From Campylobacterales bacterium (GTDB lineage: Bacteria > Campylobacterota > Campylobacteria > Campylobacterales > SZUA-545): a stretch of DNA of 64,000 bases. The DNA lies in the NCBI GenBank assembly GCA_050297855.1, contig JBNKTC010000009.1:9221-73220 (forward strand), given 5' to 3'. The position numbers were made by a program, and so were the translations under genes. Shown one piece after another: positions 9,384-53,152 of the stretch. The notes under the pieces are model-generated. The model did no database searches, had not been told where the DNA came from, and was given only the letters and a program-made list of their open reading frames with translations. The stretch's first letter is position 1, and the number at the start of each line of letters is the position of its first letter.

Positions 9384-10766
9384 TTACAGCCCCATTTTAT
9401 TCGGATTGAGGATGTTATTGGGGTCGAACGCTTTTTTAAGTGTTCGAAAGAGGTTCATCTCCTCCGGGGAAAAGGCGATGTCCATAAAGGGGGCCTTGGA
9501 GAGACCGATACCGTGCTCACCGCTGAGTGTGCCTTCCAGCTCGACAGCCGCTTCGAAGATCGCATGGATCGCCTTTTCGGCATTGAGGTATCGGACCGGG
9601 TCATTCTTGTCGGTCATGACATTGACGTGGACATTTCCGTCCCCGGTATGACCGAAACACGGGATCTGGTGGTCGTACTCTTTGCCGATCGCTTCAATAC
9701 GGCGCAACAGTTCAGGAAGCTTGCTTCGCGGAACGGTGATATCTTCGTTCAGTTTGGTCGGTCCGTACGCTTTAAGGCTTGGACTGGCATTACGTCTGGC
9801 AAACCAGATGTCCGCAGCCTCTTCGGGTGTCGCCGCCTTTTTAAAACCGACGGAACCGTTTGCTTTGAAGACCTTTTCCAATGCACCCAACTGGAACTCC
9901 AGATCTGCTTCCGTATTGCCGTCTACATCGGCGATCAGGATCGCCCCCGCATCCAGTGGCAGGCCTTTTTTATAGATCTTCTCCACCGACTGGATCGTCA
10001 GGTTGTCCAAAAACTCCATCGCCACGGGGCTGACACCCTCGGCAAAGGTCTTGAACGTCGCATTCATCGCCGCGTCCACGCTGGGGAAGATCCCCATGAC
10101 GGTACGCTGCATCTTAGGCTTAGGGATCAGCTTGAGCGTGATCTCCGTCAGGACCGCCAGGGTCCCTTCGCTGGCGATCAGGATCCCGGCGATGTTATAT
10201 CCGGCGACGTCCTTGATCGTCTTTTTCCCGGCACGGATGACGTCGCCGTTGGGCAGGACAGCACGAAGGGCCATGACGTAATCCTTCGTGATCCCGTATT
10301 TGGCTGCCCGCATCCCACCGGCATTCTCGCTGACGTTTCCGCCGAGTGTGGAGTAGTCCTGGCTGGCAGGATCCGGCGGATAGAAGAGCCCCTGGGCTTC
10401 GACCGCTTTTTGGAACTCCATGTTAACGACACCCGGCTGGACACGGGCCACGAGGTTTTCCATGTCGATCTCCAGGATCTTGTTCATATGTTTTTCAAAG
10501 GCCAGGATGATCCCGCCGTTGGCGGGGAGCGCCCCGCCGGTAAAACCGCTGCCCGCACCGCGCGGGACGATGATGATTTGATGCTCGTTGCAGTATTTTA
10601 GAATCTCGCTTACGTCTTTCTCGTCACGGGGGAAGACGACCGCATCGGGCTCGTACTCGTTGCGGGTCGCATCGTATGAGTAGGCCAGCGTATGGGCCTT
10701 GTCAGAGGAGACGTTCTCCTCGCCTATCATCGCCTTCAGGTTTGCCACATGTTTCAGATCAAGCAT
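9384..10766 (-). CDS. glcD: FAD-linked oxidase, glycolate oxidase subunit GlcD-like
   Basis: 460 aa. FAD-binding PCMH-type domain (IIVPRGAGSGFTGGALP) and a C-terminal FAD-oxidase domain (GEHGIGLSK). Confidence 0.85.
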   Translation of the reverse strand: MLDLKHVANLKAMIGEENVSSDKAHTLAYSYDATRNEYEPDAVVFPRDEKDVSEILKYCNEHQIIIVPRGAGSGFTGGALPANGGIILAFEKHMNKILEIDMENLVARVQPGVVNMEFQKAVEAQGLFYPPDPASQDYSTLGGNVSENAGGMRAAKYGITKDYVMALRAVLPNGDVIRAGKKTIKDVAGYNIAGILIASEGTLAVLTEITLKLIPKPKMQRTVMGIFPSVDAAMNATFKTFAEGVSPVAMEFLDNLTIQSVEKIYKKGLPLDAGAILIADVDGNTEADLEFQLGALEKVFKANGSVGFKKAATPEEAADIWFARRNASPSLKAYGPTKLNEDITVPRSKLPELLRRIEAIGKEYDHQIPCFGHTGDGNVHVNVMTDKNDPVRYLNAEKAIHAIFEAAVELEGTLSGEHGIGLSKAPFMDIAFSPEEMNLFRTLKKAFDPNNILNPNKMGL

Positions 10767-11461
10767 TATTTAACACCTATTATCTTTTTATAATACGCCG
10801 TAAAGTCATCCACGGCCTCGTCGCTAAAGTCAAAAAAGCCCCGCTCGATTTCACCCACTCTATGATAAAACGGCTTATCGTTGTCTTTATCATCAAACTG
10901 CACCGGTTTTTTCCCGATGACGCGGAAACTGAGGCAGTCCACCTCGTACAGTCCGTCGTTCAGTGCGAAGGCGAGCACGCCGATAAAGTTCTCCCTGCAA
11001 TAGGCCATAAAGGTGTCTCTGTCAGGTGCCGGGTTGTCGTCATATTTGAGTGTCACGGCCAGCAGGTCCGGATGGAACAGGATGGCATCAGGATACTGCG
11101 CCTTGGCGGCCAGGTAACTCTTCTGGTCCGGGGCGATCAAGGAGATGCTCCCGTTCAAAAGCCCCACAGCGACACGGTCACCTTTTTTCACCCCATCCTG
11201 TACCAGGGAGAGGGACTCGTGGTAAAGATAGTCAAACTGCTTGCAGTTCAGCTCACCGCGCTCTGCCGCGGTAACACTGCACTGGGCGATCACCGAGCCG
11301 TGATCGCTGTCAAAATCCCGGATGACAAAAGCGCTCATACCATTCTCCAGCCCCTGGGCGGATGCGACTTTGACCACACTCCCGTTCACTTCGGCCACCT
11401 CGGTCCGAACGGCCGAAAAGGCCAGTGTCGTCACTAAAAAAAACAGATAGATTCTCTTCAC
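10766..11461 (-). CDS. Secreted hypothetical protein (possibly PgbA-N-like)
   Basis: Signal peptide MKRIYLFFLVTTLAFSA. The stop overlaps the glcD start by 1 nt (TAATG). In H. pylori, as I recall, the gene next to glcD is pgbA. The functional call is weak. Confidence 0.55.
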   Translation of the reverse strand: MKRIYLFFLVTTLAFSAVRTEVAEVNGSVVKVASAQGLENGMSAFVIRDFDSDHGSVIAQCSVTAAERGELNCKQFDYLYHESLSLVQDGVKKGDRVAVGLLNGSISLIAPDQKSYLAAKAQYPDAILFHPDLLAVTLKYDDNPAPDRDTFMAYCRENFIGVLAFALNDGLYEVDCLSFRVIGKKPVQFDDKDNDKPFYHRVGEIERGFFDFSDEAVDDFTAYYKKIIGVK

Positions 11462-11503
11462 GTAATTCCCTCAAAACAGTTTCGATGCGGCACGGCCGCG
11501 TTC

Positions 11504-12505
11504 ATGGTAAAACAATCTTTAGTTGAAGTGGGTATTATATCAAACAAACAAAAATTACGGATAAATGCGATGGTATTTGAATCACTGGATCTCTTTGAAA
11601 AAATCTTCCGGGAAAAGGAGTGTGACGCGGCCGCCGGACATATCGTCACACCCCAGCGGACCCCTCCGACCCGAAAGGAGGACCGGAGCTACCTGATGCT
11701 CTCGGCCAATAATGTAAAACACCTCAACAAACTCGATACCCTTACGGCTGACAACGTCATCATTAACTTAGAAGACGGCGTAGCCCCGGAGCAGAAGGAG
11801 ATCGCCCGCTATATGGCGGCGGTCTTCATCTCCAACCTTAAAGCGAGCCATACCCGCATCATCGTACGGGTCAACCCGCTGGGCGAAGGGGGTGAAGCCG
11901 ATATCGCCCTGCTGAATACGGCCCGCCCCGACGCGATCCGCGTCCCCAAGATATACAACGGGGATGACGCCCAAAAAGCGTGTGCCCTGATCAACCCCGA
12001 AATCGAGGTCCACTTCTCCGTCGAGACCAAAGAGGCCTTTGCCGATATCGGAGCACTCAAGATCGCCCCCCGGGTCACGACGTTCTACCTCGGGGTCCTC
12101 GACCTCCTGGCCGACCTGGCCGTCCCCCAATCGGTCATCGCCTTTGGCAACCCGACCATGACCTATCTTCTTTCCAAGTTTCTTATCGACTGTAAAACGT
12201 CCGGGGTCACGCCCGTCTCCTTTACTTACCAGGAGTATACGAAGCTGGAGAGTTTCCGCCACTGGTGCAAAACGGCACTGGAGATGGGCTATACAGGGAC
12301 GTCGTGTCTTTCACCCAAACAGGTCGCCGTGGCCAACGAGGTCTTCGGTGAACGGAAACGGGAGTTGGAAAAGGCGAAATATGTCATCGAGCGTTTCGAA
12401 GCAATGGCACGCACCGGCGTAACCGGCTTTAAAGACGAACGCTACGGTTTTATCGACGAGCCGATCTACAAAGGGGCCCTGTCACTGATTAAAGGCACTC
12501 GATAG
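11504..12505 (+). CDS. HpcH/HpaI aldolase - citrate lyase beta (CitE)-like protein
   Basis: RSYLMLSANN...VIINLEDGVAP...FSVETKEA pattern of the CitE/malyl-CoA-lyase family. Start uncertain (11504, 11570 or 11696). Confidence 0.7.
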   Translation: MVKQSLVEVGIISNKQKLRINAMVFESLDLFEKIFREKECDAAAGHIVTPQRTPPTRKEDRSYLMLSANNVKHLNKLDTLTADNVIINLEDGVAPEQKEIARYMAAVFISNLKASHTRIIVRVNPLGEGGEADIALLNTARPDAIRVPKIYNGDDAQKACALINPEIEVHFSVETKEAFADIGALKIAPRVTTFYLGVLDLLADLAVPQSVIAFGNPTMTYLLSKFLIDCKTSGVTPVSFTYQEYTKLESFRHWCKTALEMGYTGTSCLSPKQVAVANEVFGERKRELEKAKYVIERFEAMARTGVTGFKDERYGFIDEPIYKGALSLIKGTR

Positions 12506-44835: not shown

Positions 44836-44867
44836 GGTGAAAATAAAGTTGCTTGTCACCTTTTTTC
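44836..44867. repeat. AT-rich roughly 32-bp element, copy 1 (GGTGAAAATAAAGTTGCTTGTCACCTTTTTTC)
   Basis: 9 nt 3-prime of the ParE-pseudogene stop. By-eye alignment gives 26/31 identical to copy 2. Confidence 0.7.
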
Positions 44868-46477: not shown

Positions 46478-46510
46478 GGATGAGAATAAAGTAGCTTGTA
46501 CCCTTTTTTA
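46478..46510. repeat. AT-rich roughly 32-bp element, copy 2 (GGATGAGAATAAAGTAGCTTGTACCCTTTTTTA)
   Basis: Directly abuts the RelE-like toxin stop (46511). Confidence 0.7.
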
Positions 46511-47111: not shown

Positions 47112-47143
47112 ATGAAAAAAGTAGACTGACTTCTTTATTTACA
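47112..47143. repeat. AT-rich roughly 32-bp element, copy 3 (ATGAAAAAAGTAGACTGACTTCTTTATTTACA), more diverged
   Basis: Abuts the stop of the 82-aa ORF (47144). It aligns to copies 1 and 2 best in inverted orientation (GATGTAAATAAAGAAGTCAGTCTACTTTTTTC). The element is a partial A/T palindrome, so orientation is ambiguous. Confidence 0.45.
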
Positions 47144-47392
47144 TCATGAATCAGAAATCCCATGTAACTCAAGACGGTCTATATACCGGATCAAAGCCCC
47201 CATTTTCTCCTCGATCAAAACCAAGTGATCATGAAACGTCGGAACATACCGAACCTCACGATCATTCTCTGAAATATATGCCATCGCATAATCAAGTGAC
47301 TGGAGCAAGCTTTGGATATTGCAAGCCTGAATCTGGAGCGATGAAATACTGTAATCGGACGGTTTTTGGTCTTTTTTTTCGTTTTCACCCAT
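47144..47392 (-). CDS. Hypothetical small protein (82 aa)
   Basis: Track ORF in AT-rich DNA, divergent from the HTH gene. No family recognised. Confidence 0.45.
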   Translation of the reverse strand: MGENEKKDQKPSDYSISSLQIQACNIQSLLQSLDYAMAYISENDREVRYVPTFHDHLVLIEEKMGALIRYIDRLELHGISDS

Positions 47393-47503
47393 ATTGCATC
47401 CTTAAAGAAAATAAAACTGAAAATGTTTATTTTCATTATTTTAAACATTATTGATGTGTTATAACATTTCAAACTTAAATCTAAGATGTATCGATGGTTA
47501 AAA

Positions 47504-47524
47504 TCTCACATTATTTATGTGAGA
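47504..47524. promoter_or_regulatory. Perfect 8-bp inverted repeat (TCTCACAT-tattt-ATGTGAGA), candidate operator
   Basis: It sits immediately upstream of the RBS (AAGAGG) of the HTH gene. A second perfect inverted repeat, AATGTTTA-12 nt-TAAACATT, lies at 47422-47449. Confidence 0.4.
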
Positions 47525-47535
47525 AAGAGGCTGTG

Positions 47536-47754
47536 ATGACTTACAAAGAATTTGAGGATGCGCTAAAATTAGCTGGGATCGATAAAAAAGCATTTTCCAG
47601 AATGACAGGTCTTAACTACACTTCAATCACCAATTGGAGTCAAGAGGGAAAAACGATTCCATTCTGGGTAAAGTCATACCTAGAATACTTCACGAAATCC
47701 AAGCTTTATGACGAGATGGCTTCAAAAATGGCAGAGGTTCAGAAACGGTCGTAA
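47536..47754 (+). CDS. Small XRE/Cro-like helix-turn-helix protein
   Basis: Track ORF from 47494. I prefer MTYKEF at 47536 (AAGAGG RBS). ...IDKKAFSRMTGLNYTSITNWSQEGK... is a typical HTH_3-like turn. Confidence 0.6.
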   Translation: MTYKEFEDALKLAGIDKKAFSRMTGLNYTSITNWSQEGKTIPFWVKSYLEYFTKSKLYDEMASKMAEVQKRS

Positions 47755-47764
47755 TAAAGAGGGT

Positions 47765-47786
47765 AAAAGGGACTCGTCCCGTTTTT
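47765..47786. terminator. Bidirectional hairpin between the HTH gene and the three-gene operon
   Basis: AAAAGGGAC-tc-GTCCCGTTTTT. GC stem flanked by an A-run and a T-run, between convergent stops (47754 and 47795). Confidence 0.6.
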
Positions 47787-47794
47787 CTGAAGTG

Positions 47795-49078
47795 TTATGC
47801 ACCAGGATTAATATTTGACATATATTCAAAACCATCAGCACTTAGGACAAAACTAAAATTTTCCATACCAAAAAAATCATATATGTCCGGTTTACTATAT
47901 TCTTGGAGTAATCCTTCCCTAAACATCGATTCAAATTGTACAACAAGAGCTGAATATGAAAGATCATCAAAAAGATTTTGAGTAGTAAATTCCAAGCTAT
48001 TTTCACCAGTTTGAATAAGTTTTAAAGACAAAATCCATAAAAGTAATTCTTCAAATTTTGCATCTTTTCTATCATCTGATAAAAAATCGATTGATTGCAT
48101 CAAAATTATGTCAAAAACATCTGCAGGCATGTTATGCGGCAAAAATCTTTCTAATCCGAGTTCAACTTTAAAAATATGTTTATGAAAGGTATTTGTAACT
48201 TCTTCTTCATTTCTGAAAACAGATACATCTTCTGCTTTCAAAAAGTGCCAATCTTTTCGAATACCATCTACGTAACTAGGATATGCGTCACATATATCAT
48301 TAAAAAGGGAAATTAAGCGCTGGTAATGCTCTTCTGATGTCCAATGCTGACCAATAAGCTTTTGATTGGGAAACCTAAATGATATATCCTGATAATTATC
48401 AGATGAGAGAATTGAGTTACAATAATTTGCAAATGAATAATTACCTTTTTCATCTTTTGACTCCAATTTCCCATATGTCATTAATCCAATGTTTTCATGC
48501 TGATTTTTAACACGTAATTTGTATTCAAGTCCATCTCTTGTTTCTCTTCGATTTATTCCAACGATATTTTGCTTTAATGCGTCTTTATAAATTTGTGAAA
48601 AATTTTTTAGATTTTTTGAATTCGAACTTTTTATTTCAATAAGAGGAAGTGTTTTTCTTATCTTTTTAGTAATGTATTGTTGTCTATTTTTATTTATCCT
48701 ACTACTTTTGAACACATCCACTGGTATAGTCTCTGGTCCTTCAAAGAAAAAGCCTTTCGAATTTAACTGACTAGTAATATATTCATTTATATCATCGAAG
48801 CAACCCATTGGATACCATTCAGTTTTTCCATTAGTCTCTTGTTTGAGAGGTATAGTAAAATTGTAATGTGAAAATGTACTCTTGATTTTATCTTCTAGTT
48901 TTTTAGCATCTTTTCGACTATCCATCCTAATCGCTTGAGATTTGCTTCCGAAAGGTCCAAAGTTCTTTAAATCTTTTTGAACTCTTCCATTTTTTACAGC
49001 AAACCTTGATGATATACCCACTTTAAAGCATAATTCATCTTTTCGCACCAAAAGATATAGAAAATGTTTACCTAACAT
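47795..49078 (-). CDS. T5orf172 (MUG113) / GIY-YIG-superfamily domain protein with about 300-aa unassigned C-terminal region (operon gene 3)
   Basis: Track ORF to 49099. I prefer the ATG at 49078 (AAGGTGA RBS 5 nt upstream). N-terminus FLYLLVRKDELCFKVGISS...RVQKDL...AKKLEDKIKSTFSHYNF...NGKTEWY matches my memory of the T5orf172 pattern (Y.l....KIGit...R...L...E..lH..f......g.tEWF). Confidence 0.7.
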   Translation of the reverse strand: MLGKHFLYLLVRKDELCFKVGISSRFAVKNGRVQKDLKNFGPFGSKSQAIRMDSRKDAKKLEDKIKSTFSHYNFTIPLKQETNGKTEWYPMGCFDDINEYITSQLNSKGFFFEGPETIPVDVFKSSRINKNRQQYITKKIRKTLPLIEIKSSNSKNLKNFSQIYKDALKQNIVGINRRETRDGLEYKLRVKNQHENIGLMTYGKLESKDEKGNYSFANYCNSILSSDNYQDISFRFPNQKLIGQHWTSEEHYQRLISLFNDICDAYPSYVDGIRKDWHFLKAEDVSVFRNEEEVTNTFHKHIFKVELGLERFLPHNMPADVFDIILMQSIDFLSDDRKDAKFEELLLWILSLKLIQTGENSLEFTTQNLFDDLSYSALVVQFESMFREGLLQEYSKPDIYDFFGMENFSFVLSADGFEYMSNINPGA

Positions 49079-49154
49079 TGTTTCACCTTTTAAAAGCATA
49101 AGAAAAAAGACCTCTTTATTCCATGTATTTCAATGCTGAATCTTTAAAATATCA

Positions 49155-50843
49155 CTATTCTTCAACACCCTCGTCTTTCGGTTGTATTGGGATAGGAGTA
49201 CTACGAATAATTCGAGATGATGAACTTGGACTAATACCATGCAAGGCATACTCTTTTAGATTTGAAAAATCTGAATAATCCAACTTTCCATCATATCCCC
49301 ACATACCTGATTCATATTCGATATGAGGTCGCTTTTCTCCATCTTTTTCTAACTCTTCTATCCAAAAACATGGATTAAGGTTTGCTTTTGGTCTGATTGC
49401 ACATTTTACTCCTCGTAATCTCGAATAGGCTTGTTCAGCATACGCCTTCATATAGAAGTTCCCTTCTGAATCGATATCTTGTATAAGCCAAGTTAATATG
49501 TGCCCCATAAACTCTTCCGAATGGCTTTCTACCGGGATTAAACAACGGGACCAAAAACAACCTATATTTAAATGTTTTGCCACTCTACCAAGTTGAACAA
49601 TAGATTCAAAAACAGCGACAATCGTCTGCATAGATTTCAACTTGGCTGCATTACAACCAAGGAACGAAAGGCTTTCCATACACCGATAAGCAAAATGTGA
49701 ATTCCCGCTATAAAAGGCCGATACACCTAATTTTTTTATGTCATGTGCATAGACAGAAATATTATATTTATCCAATTCCGCTATACCATCTGATGAATTC
49801 TCTACTTCTAATCGATAGATTCCTAGCTCTATTACATGCTGAAGGGTATTAAGTATTTTTATAGGCTCAATAACGCTCTTCGATTCTAGCATTATTGTAC
49901 CAATCCATACTGCATCCGATGCAACAGATCTTGTCATATCAGAACATGGATGTGCCAAGGCTTCCTTTTTTGTCAAGAATGTACAAAGCTCACTCGAAAG
50001 AGACTGAAAAAACATGCCACTTTTATCTAAATCAGCTATATGAGTAATGATTGCGTGCAAACGTTTTTGTGCAATTTTTTTCATTCCACTATAAATCTCA
50101 TATGTCTCTTCATTTGCTGATTTATATGAATAGGTCGCAAGAACTAATTTCAGAATTGCATTTAGTGACTGTCGAAATACTGGATAATCATTATTCTCAA
50201 TCGATAATTTTGTTATAACTGCAATGGAATCCCATAGATCATTAGGCTCAACCCCCCATACACTTGGTTCAAAATCATATGCATGGGTAGGTATTTGAAA
50301 TTTATCTCTATTTTTTAAATACTCTTGATGATCATCAACCTCTTTTTTTAATTCTCTTGAGATCATTCCTAAATATCTACCTATAGCTTTGTCACTCAAA
50401 CGTTTTTCAATAAACTGACTAGGACTTAAATATTTAGAAGTGAGTTCCGCATTATCTACTGATGATAAGACTAAAACTGGGAGTATCCACAATGCTATTT
50501 TTCCAAAGTATTCTGGAGCGACCAAAAAGGAAACCAGTGGCAAGAATGGCAGAATCAATAAAAGAATTATGTTGAACCATTGCCTTTGAGTAACTTCATT
50601 ATAAATTGCTTTATATTTTGAAAGTTGGTACCCAAAAAAAGTAAAGTTAATTGAGAAAACAGCTATCGTAAAATTTATACCCAATAACCAAGGAGTGATT
50701 TTTTCTAGGTTCTGATTTAATGAACCAATTACTATCAACAGTTCAAGAATCAGTAAAACAATTAATCTCAAAGACAAACTCCAATCGTCTACAATATTTT
50801 GTTTTCTAGATACAGCATAACGAGACAGCATATTCTTTTCCAT
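49155..50843 (-). CDS. Membrane protein: four N-terminal TM helices + about 420-aa unassigned soluble domain (operon gene 2)
   Basis: 562 aa. Hydrophobic segments LRLIVLLILELLIVIGSL, WLLGINFTIAVFSINFTFFGY, WFNIILLLILPFLPLVSFLV and FGKIALWILPVLVLSSV. The rest has no motif I recognise. Confidence 0.7.
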   Translation of the reverse strand: MEKNMLSRYAVSRKQNIVDDWSLSLRLIVLLILELLIVIGSLNQNLEKITPWLLGINFTIAVFSINFTFFGYQLSKYKAIYNEVTQRQWFNIILLLILPFLPLVSFLVAPEYFGKIALWILPVLVLSSVDNAELTSKYLSPSQFIEKRLSDKAIGRYLGMISRELKKEVDDHQEYLKNRDKFQIPTHAYDFEPSVWGVEPNDLWDSIAVITKLSIENNDYPVFRQSLNAILKLVLATYSYKSANEETYEIYSGMKKIAQKRLHAIITHIADLDKSGMFFQSLSSELCTFLTKKEALAHPCSDMTRSVASDAVWIGTIMLESKSVIEPIKILNTLQHVIELGIYRLEVENSSDGIAELDKYNISVYAHDIKKLGVSAFYSGNSHFAYRCMESLSFLGCNAAKLKSMQTIVAVFESIVQLGRVAKHLNIGCFWSRCLIPVESHSEEFMGHILTWLIQDIDSEGNFYMKAYAEQAYSRLRGVKCAIRPKANLNPCFWIEELEKDGEKRPHIEYESGMWGYDGKLDYSDFSNLKEYALHGISPSSSSRIIRSTPIPIQPKDEGVEE

Positions 50844-50855
50844 TTCTCTAAATAA

Positions 50856-51770
50856 TTATTTTTTCCAATATTGTTTCTCCAACGTTTCGTACACAAAATC
50901 TGATAAGAAACTATGAAGGAAAGGTTGTTTTTTTTGCCAATATTCAGAATAAAGGTCACAAACTACCCTTTGACAAACTTTTAAGACCTCCAACAATTTC
51001 TTATCAAGCATAATCAATAATTCTGTCATATGGTACTCATACATAAAATAGTCCCCATATGCAGCATCACTACCTATATCATTATCTTGAACAAACTGTT
51101 TAGGTGTTGGAATATCCCATGCTATGTCTAGAATGAAACATATAGAAAAAATCGAACTTAACAAAAAATTAAAATCAAAGAGAACTTCGTCATCTTCTAC
51201 AAGCATATGAAAATCTCTACGTATATTGTTATAGTAAAAATTTGAAAAAGACTTGTAAAGATTAGGTAATGATATAAATTTCTCTTCCATCTTATTAAGG
51301 TTTTCTGTCCACCTATAAGCATTTAAAAATACTTCTACATTGAACTCATCAGAATTATAAAACTCGTAATAAAAATTATTATCACTTGAATATCTATTGT
51401 AATTTTGTCGAACATAATCAGCAACAGATTTGAAATAGATTTTTTTCTTTGTCTCATCTATGAGAAGTAAAAATGCTGGGATGTTTGAATTCAACCAATA
51501 ATTAGTTGTATTTTTATTTACTTTATATAATCTATATTTTCCAGAATTATCAAAGTTAACATTGGCAGTAGATTTTAGTTGAAATGATGTGAATATTCCA
51601 GTAACTTGGTTTTTGGAGTTTACTAACTCTATCAGAGCGTCTATTCCATAATCTCTTTCTGACAGTTGTCGAACGAGCCAATGATTTGGAATATTATTCT
51701 CAAATACTTTGTATGAAACTGTTTCTTTGATGTGATTTATTGCTCTTATTGGAAAATTTTGTTCAAACAC
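50856..51770 (-). CDS. DUF4365-like (PD-(D/E)xK restriction-endonuclease-fold) protein with about 180-aa unassigned C-terminal region (operon gene 1)
   Basis: 304 aa, GTG start (AGGA 9 nt upstream). N-terminus ...HIKETVSYKVFENNIPNHWLVRQLSERDYGIDALIELV...GIFTSFQLKS... fits my memory of the DUF4365 pattern (E..s......gw.......DyGiD..ie.........vQvK). Confidence 0.65.
   Translation of the reverse strand: MFEQNFPIRAINHIKETVSYKVFENNIPNHWLVRQLSERDYGIDALIELVNSKNQVTGIFTSFQLKSTANVNFDNSGKYRLYKVNKNTTNYWLNSNIPAFLLLIDETKKKIYFKSVADYVRQNYNRYSSDNNFYYEFYNSDEFNVEVFLNAYRWTENLNKMEEKFISLPNLYKSFSNFYYNNIRRDFHMLVEDDEVLFDFNFLLSSIFSICFILDIAWDIPTPKQFVQDNDIGSDAAYGDYFMYEYHMTELLIMLDKKLLEVLKVCQRVVCDLYSEYWQKKQPFLHSFLSDFVYETLEKQYWKK

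Positions 51771-52027: not shown

Positions 52028-53152
<1,125 letters not shown>

Follow-up and report, generated by a model that had tools for sequence, protein, structure and literature searches.

What is the gene that lies on the minus strand at positions 49155-50843 of this 64,000-nt stretch of a Campylobacterales genome (contig JBNKTC010000009.1; hereafter the window, meaning the whole stretch), and does it work together with the genes beside it? Its longest open reading frame (ORF), here called gene B, counts 562 codons from an ATG at 50843 and is one of three co-directional minus-strand ORFs, A, B and C, that fill a small AT-rich island, a 4.7-kb stretch of 29-36% GC (47.1-51.9 kb) within DNA of ~55% GC. 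The island is bordered on one side by ilvC (52028-53107, minus) and on the other by a ParE-type toxin-antitoxin (TA) pair, a PEMT/ICMT-like gene and purC. A first-pass annotation, made from the sequence alone, saw in gene B a possible membrane effector or scaffold paired with nucleases encoded by A and C, and considered it the most novel-looking component of their operon. The answer that emerges here is that gene B is very probably a solo, horizontally mobile module, which in this genome happens to have A and C as neighbours.

That the ORF is real, as first annotated, is borne out by the ORF list and by its homologues, which are numerous. A word-indexed search of 5.8 billion proteins returned 104 clusters (E 1e-35 to 1e-276, 25-75% identity), with members from Shewanella, Xenorhabdus, Yersinia, Pectobacterium, Vibrio, Aeromonas, Ferrimonas, Arcobacter and many metagenomes, and HMMER, run with a family profile over 1.84 billion representatives, returned 171 clusters at 50% identity (E <= 1e-3). 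Every named homologue is labelled "hypothetical protein". Essentially all full-length matches span the whole profile, from which a fixed architecture can be deduced. When gene B of the window and 35 members of the family were searched at loose thresholds against Pfam, NCBIfam, PADLOC and PHROGs, only scattered chance matches came up, none of them above threshold for the window protein and none consistent across the 35. In PADLOC-DB 2.0.0, which includes KwaA, Abi and PDC candidates, there was nothing for the gene B of the window at E <= 0.1 and, for the 35 members, there were two single-member chance matches only (E <= 1). A sequence search of the PDB gave nothing relevant. The sole Pfam match, to Acyl_transf_3 (PF01757), was rejected: its score of 16.6 bits falls short of the cut-off (31), and it was found in two of the 35 members and covered the hydrophobic helices only.

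Is gene B then one part of a conserved three-gene system? The layout of the island speaks for a defence operon in which a DUF4365 nuclease (A) and a GIY-YIG-like protein (C) would act with or through B: the genes are co-directional, all low in GC and closely spaced, with 55 nt between B and C and, between A and B, 12 nt from the ATG start of B or 84 nt from the TTG start discussed below. Since the only clear terminator hairpin (GGGAC-GA-GTCCC followed by a T-run, read from the sequence at 47769-47780, minus) comes just past gene C, the three genes could plausibly be co-transcribed in this genome. A promoter/terminator consensus scan, which did not list this hairpin, found no more matches in the island than in shuffled sequence.

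The contexts of gene B elsewhere tell against such an operon. They were assembled for eight homologues by exact look-up, for eight loci from named genomes and for one IMG/VR contig. No relative of A, of C or of the two small ORFs adjacent to them was found by tblastn in 22 loci carrying B homologues; the same search of the IMG/VR contig found nothing but B, and when the ORFs lying up to 4 kb from B were compared all against all by BLAST, the only neighbours in common came from repeat samplings of one site. Across some 16 independent contexts, B has no relative of A or C nearby and no conserved neighbour.

The view from gene A (50856-51770, minus) is the same. This restriction-endonuclease-like protein of 304 residues, recognised by its profile matches (DUF4365, E = 3e-16; PADLOC Aga_REase, 8e-14), has 12 other homologue clusters of ~305-residue DUF4365 proteins, and the four that were looked up (L025-L028) all stand solo in defence islands, in the company of Hachiman, Cap15/JAB/E2, OLD-type AAA_15 and GIY-YIG genes, with no B or C relative beside any of them. 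A single DUF4365 protein is moreover reported to defend alone, namely 'Divona', a DUF4365-only integron cassette described as anti-phage (10.1101/2024.07.02.601686). As for gene C (47795-49099, minus; 434 residues), which bears a weak sub-threshold T5orf172 match (E = 2e-3), no homologue but itself was found among the 5.8 billion proteins at the sensitivity of that search. It is a true orphan of the island, so the distinction of being its most novel component belongs to C, whereas B is part of a well-populated family. Finally, a GTTATGC relic between A and B, described below, marks B as separately acquired. An operon of three cooperating genes is, in the light of all this, very improbable, and the pairing of B with nucleases A and C, as first proposed, does not hold up. 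In their evolution, A, B and C are three independent modules rather than a conserved system, and the AT-rich "operon" would be better annotated as three such modules stacked in a mini-island.

What marks gene B itself as mobile is, to begin with, its composition and its distribution. In each of the 15 loci compared, it is richer in AT than the distal flanks, by up to 27 GC points, with a GC content of 24-44% in hosts that range from 29 to 68%. None of the 40 close relatives of the window organism that were searched carries it, one genome in a sample of 400 others from the same class or phylum does (to judge by its coordinates, Arcobacter sp. CECT 8986), and a pattern scan of ~186,000 species genomes turned it up at only eight loci. 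Its similarities are non-vertical: the gene B of the window is 75% identical to a soil-metagenome sequence, 70% to a Shewanella homologue and 63% to that of Arcobacter, and a single cluster at 90% identity brings together Vibrio harveyi, V. cholerae, V. diabolicus, members of the V. parahaemolyticus group and Photobacterium.

The places in which gene B is found point the same way. On the IMG/VR contig (L024; IMGVR_UViG_3300009374_000868, 10001-11545), a homologue with 45% identity lies on the opposite strand between tailed-phage structural blocks, on a contig with genes for a portal, a major head protein, a scaffold and a DNA methyltransferase of 1,177 residues, and this copy is a moron in a genuine tailed phage. 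In Pectobacterium (L013), gene B adjoins a P4-type integrase with a RelE/HTH pair (HTH, helix-turn-helix), and at another locus (L004, 5951-9563) a kdp operon is interrupted between kdpC and kdpD by a block made of a Fic-like/HATPase_c_4 gene, a YhcG (DUF1016) nuclease gene and B, with an MNT/HEPN pair a few kb downstream. The first-pass annotation had left room for a housekeeping family, such as a transporter accessory or a cell-wall enzyme, with homologues mainly outside variable regions; no such family was matched, and the homologues occur in variable regions, cassette arrays, small islands and phage.

The clearest picture of how gene B moves comes from integrons. In two Vibrio loci (L002 and L003), B and its 50-nt leader show no difference from GCG/TTATGTGCC onward, while the cassettes that precede them are not the same (a TPR protein in one, a 160-residue ORF in the other), and each of these preceding cassettes ends in a ~120-nt palindrome of the Vibrio attC type, a pattern characteristic of cassettes that an integron has shuffled at the G/TT core. 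An inverse core, ACATAAC, is found 3' of the gene B stop codon in L002/L003 and in two further loci (L015 and L016). In L016, where it lies 11 nt past the stop, it pairs with GTTAGGT to form a hairpin of 72 nt (-15.5 kcal/mol, z = -2.0), and the next intergenic gaps downstream contain two more attC-like sites. Both the Vibrio loci and L016 display several consecutive attC-like sites between co-directional ORFs. Elsewhere, an attC-like palindrome lies directly upstream of gene B (L020), GTTATGT is found 43 nt upstream (L017), and a common leader starts at a GTTATGA-like site (L015, L016, L018 and L013). To judge by these boundaries, gene B resides in attC-bounded integron cassette arrays in Vibrio and in one other gammaproteobacterium. 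No mention of the accession numbers of the Vibrio homologues was found in the literature searched; Getz et al. 2025 (Nat Microbiol 10:724) reportedly tested V. parahaemolyticus integron cassettes.

Does the window retain a trace of this mode of transfer? On the coding strand of the island (3,976 nt), GTTATG occurs just once, in the sequence GTTATGC at 50815-50821 (minus), with 0.02 occurrences expected in the 83-nt spacer. This GTTATGC lies exactly 50 nt upstream of a TTG codon, a spacing equal to that of GTTATGT in the Vibrio cassettes L002/L003, and probably survives from the boundary of an integron cassette (attC R' core). This bears on where the protein starts. Homologues of 515-545 residues nearly all begin at window residue 25, the position of the TTG at 50771, and a Shine-Dalgarno-like GGAG (50779-50782, minus, read from the sequence) sits 7 nt upstream of it. 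Because the homologues align from that residue and a GGAG precedes the TTG, the product of gene B is probably a 538-residue protein encoded by 49155-50771 (minus), and the GTTATGC 50 nt upstream supports both this start and a separate origin of A and B. The residue numbers used below are those of the 562-residue ORF.

What does the protein look like? The first-pass annotation recognised four hydrophobic helices within the first ~130 residues, and on this point hydropathy, a 35-member alignment and an AlphaFold model all agree. The helices span residues 27-46, 52-72, 89-109 and 114-130 (mean Kyte-Doolittle 2.08, 1.38, 2.40 and 1.57, respectively), are hydrophobic in all 35 aligned members and coincide with modelled helices at 2-41, 50-74, 86-108 and 110-138. 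They make up a predicted membrane domain with four transmembrane (TM) helices (residues 27-130; 50454-50765, minus), to which hydropathy, AlphaFold and counts of lysine plus arginine assign an N-in/C-in topology. Averaged across the family, these counts are 4.1 for the TM2-TM3 loop (loop 2), 4.1 after TM4, 0.7 for loop 1 and 0.1 for loop 3, and loops 1 and 3 are of ~5 residues each. The positive-inside rule, applied family-wide, thus places gene B among putative inner-membrane proteins, with its N-terminus and its whole soluble part predicted to be cytoplasmic and almost no exposure to the periplasm. One of two conservation peaks falls on TM2 and the cytoplasmic loop 2 (FSINFTFFGYQLSKYK, residues 61-80; mean column identity 0.85 in the 35-member alignment), and Y77, P102 and P122 are nearly invariant among 54 members. 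Conservation this strong argues that the membrane part has a function beyond that of an anchor.

The remaining ~420 residues are, as first described, soluble, not of low complexity and without an assignable family: beyond residue 140, no 17-residue segment exceeds a hydropathy of 1.13, compositional entropy comes to 4.15 out of 4.32 bits, and the family searches came back without a match. An AlphaFold2 model built with the 35-sequence alignment (mean predicted local distance difference test score (pLDDT) 84.8; predicted template modelling score (pTM) 0.81) divides this part into an all-alpha domain of ~15 helices (residues 141-477; 49413-50423, minus), which is modelled as cytoplasmic and alpha-solenoid-like, and a small C-terminal beta domain (residues 481-547; 49203-49403, minus). 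The latter, also seen when residues 375-550 are modelled alone (pLDDT 90.4, pTM 0.88), comes immediately after R475 and G478, two invariant residues of a YSRLxG motif at the end of the last helix. The alignment defines a core motif, YRC..LGC(397)...QLGR(420)...C429-x4-C434-x6-H441..H448 (residues 382-456; 49476-49700, minus), which overlaps the second conservation peak (residues 381-400, YRCMETLSYLGC; mean column identity again 0.85). Across the 54 members, which reach down to 18% identity, R420, C429, C434, H441, R475 and G478 are invariant, and G396, C397, G419 and D522-Y523-S524 are nearly so. The arrangement C397...C429-x4-C434-x6-H441, in a domain predicted to be cytoplasmic, suggests a candidate Cys3His metal site.

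Searches by fold gave no housekeeping relative either, which was the check that had been proposed for this part of the protein. With Foldseek, the full model matched nothing in the PDB or BFVD at E < 1e-3, its best matches being designed or natural alpha-solenoids, with a designed repeat protein at their head (E = 1.5e-3, TM-score 0.27-0.32). Matches to helical repeats (TPR/HEAT) and to 14-3-3 proteins were set aside as generic. Pfam gave no repeat match. The C-terminal module found no PDB fold match (best E = 0.93), which suggests that this modelled combination of helices and beta structure may be a fold without a solved relative.

Variations on this architecture are few. Short matches of 190-255 residues, considered as possible free-standing modules, look like 5'-truncated gene calls. 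Two N-terminal extensions exist in the family: one adds TM helices and the other has a sub-threshold EVE match. The EVE (PUA-like) match was seen in residues 1-200 of a distant relative (P0145; E = 0.055) and is a lead that was not used as evidence; if real, it would tie the gene B family to the recognition of modified nucleic acids. In Marinomonas fungiae (L021, 9956-11571), the homologue is broken into two overlapping ORFs of 306 and 245 residues and is probably a frameshifted pseudogene.

What might such a protein do? We propose, tentatively and with somewhat less than even confidence in the explanation as a whole, that gene B is a single-gene, membrane-anchored defence against phages and other mobile genetic elements (MGEs). 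Very probably, and with far more confidence than attaches to the function, it is a self-contained, mobile inner-membrane protein in which a four-helix TM domain is joined to an alpha-solenoid on the cytoplasmic side and to a C-terminal module of helices and beta structure, with a probable Cys3His metal site and two invariant arginines. It very probably moves as a single unit, (i) as an integron cassette in Vibrionaceae and other gammaproteobacteria, (ii) as a small-island gene beside an integrase or TA modules and (iii) once as a tailed-phage moron, and in this genome it has settled in a small AT-rich island next to A and C, solo genes to which it is unrelated. As to function, the cytoplasmic orientation and the two conservation peaks suggest a mechanism. 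The cytoplasmic solenoid/Cys-His part may sense a phage- or MGE-derived cue, to which the four-helix membrane domain may respond, probably after oligomerisation, so that the inner membrane would be permeabilised (abortive infection) or otherwise perturbed. Metal binding, the division into sensor and effector and the defence function itself are what we infer here, whereas the results above show the gene and its architecture, its topology under the positive-inside rule, and that it is solo, mobile, rare and unannotated.

The evidence for this defence reading is circumstantial and consists of the solo status of gene B, its patchiness, its AT bias, its location in cassettes, a moron and small islands, and the defence-type company that it occasionally keeps, which comprises AAA_15 and GmrSD genes (L005), MNT/HEPN or HepT genes (L004 and L006), the RelE/HTH pair with integrase (L013), the YhcG nuclease (L004), a PDC-S31 candidate (L017) and, in the window, DUF4365. 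There is also a precedent in integrons. Among cassettes of unknown function, 16 of those tested from the V. cholerae chromosomal integron, ~18%, gave phage resistance, as did at least a third of those from mobile integrons, and about a third of the latter cassettes encode TM helices (10.1101/2024.07.02.601686, 10.1101/2024.07.02.601719).

Several results weigh against this picture of a mobile, single-gene defence. As regards mobility, gene B had no tblastn match in 50,697 GenBank phage or 72,556 PLSDB plasmid records; in the window, neither the A-B nor the B-C spacer folds into an attC hairpin and the 55-nt B-C spacer lacks cores; and the ORF list shows no recombinase at 44.7-52 kb, where no search aimed at an integron integrase was made. 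The attC scanner, which combines regular expressions with folding, is also unspecific, with many matches within coding DNA, and only sites at gene boundaries were counted. As regards function, one of ten tested immediate neighbours matched a PADLOC candidate family and most are not known defence genes; there are no fusions to alternative effectors by which the soluble part could be recognised as an interchangeable sensor; the 35 members showed no homology to a known defence protein in PADLOC; several copies stand alone between housekeeping genes (ubiD and hemY, lysE and thyA); and most integron cassettes are not defence genes.

The last three of these points also speak for another reading, in which gene B is mobile and accessory but serves something other than defence, like most integron cassettes of unknown function, and encodes, for example, a membrane-anchored enzyme or a signalling or stress protein with a catalytic or ligand site formed by its Cys, His and Arg residues. 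Some 82% of the integron cassettes tested showed no defence activity (10.1101/2024.07.02.601686), and an active site could well be built from the invariant Arg, Cys and His. Such a role is nonetheless rather unlikely in our view, as gene B matches no enzyme or transporter family or fold, and its extreme patchiness, AT bias and carriage by phage and by TA/integrase islands are typical of conflict genes rather than of genes for niche adaptation.

Could gene B instead defend while leaving the cell alive, in the manner of superinfection exclusion, by keeping the genome out or interrupting an early step at the membrane? One copy is a phage moron, the classical place of exclusion genes, and 'Deva', a membrane-located protein encoded by an integron cassette, reportedly interferes with genome injection (10.1101/2024.07.02.601719). 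The predicted topology fits this poorly, since periplasmic loops of ~5 residues, with nearly all of the mass in the cytoplasm, would leave little surface for an injection apparatus, and a sensing or regulatory role would suit the large, conserved cytoplasmic domain better. Exclusion is, on balance, a distinctly unlikely mode of action.

If gene B does defend alone, it would be a new family among the single-gene, membrane-acting defences that integrons stockpile, and it would show ~1.6-kb cassettes circulating between Vibrio integrons, other chromosomes and phages. A broader claim, which we regard as possible and make with more reserve than the defence reading itself, is that the family represents an unrecognised class of one-protein immune modules, with a four-helix effector, a solenoid sensor and a Cys3His/Arg module whose fold has no solved relative; with the same caution, the class would have reached Gammaproteobacteria, Campylobacterota and other groups both on phages, as a moron, and as an integron cassette of unusual size. 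The C-terminal module of the family is structurally novel, and C429, C434, H441, R420, R475 and, in the membrane loop, Y77/K78 are clear targets for mutation.

The rest of the mini-island and its surroundings contain a few further features. A small HTH-like ORF (47494-47754, plus) is convergent with gene C, with which it shares the terminator hairpin at 47769-47780, and an 82-residue ORF (47144-47392, minus) is divergent from it; neither has relatives near B homologues. A 29-30-nt AT-rich element occurs at 44838-44866 and 46481-46509 (86% identity), in both cases just past the 3' ends of unrelated small genes of the TA region, and a third copy, inverted and 73% complementary, at 47114-47143; its core sites are not attC-like.

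How does gene B compare with systems that are already known? Several abortive-infection systems have membrane effectors: RexB of phage lambda is a four-TM channel, KwaA of Kiwa has four TM helices, and Cap14, Cap15 and PycTM are the TM effectors of CBASS and Pycsar. Like them, gene B would couple a TM bundle to a cytoplasmic sensing or activating part and is found in variable regions, a resemblance that is one of logic only. Unlike these effectors, which rely on separate partners or on cyclic-nucleotide signals, it has no partner, no nucleotide-binding domain and no PADLOC match. The long helical cytoplasmic domain, the solo status and the patchy distribution are reminiscent of single-protein defences with TPR/HEAT-like sensors, such as Avs and DSR2-type proteins, from which gene B differs in having no NTPase, SIR2 or nuclease effector, and its matches to repeat folds are insignificant (best E = 1.5e-3, TM-score below 0.3). 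A further likeness is with single-gene anti-phage cassettes that encode TM helices, such as Brigantia and Deva/BRiCs of Vibrio and mobile integrons (10.1101/2024.07.02.601686, 10.1101/2024.07.02.601719): like these, gene B comes as one gene per attC-bounded cassette, occurs in Vibrionaceae arrays, is membrane-anchored by prediction and has no recognisable domain, whereas at ~1.6 kb it is much larger than typical cassettes, and the likeness is one of description. The gene B family is uncharacterised, but the kind of gene that it most resembles, a single-gene, membrane-anchored conflict gene of cassettes and islands, is one that is already known.

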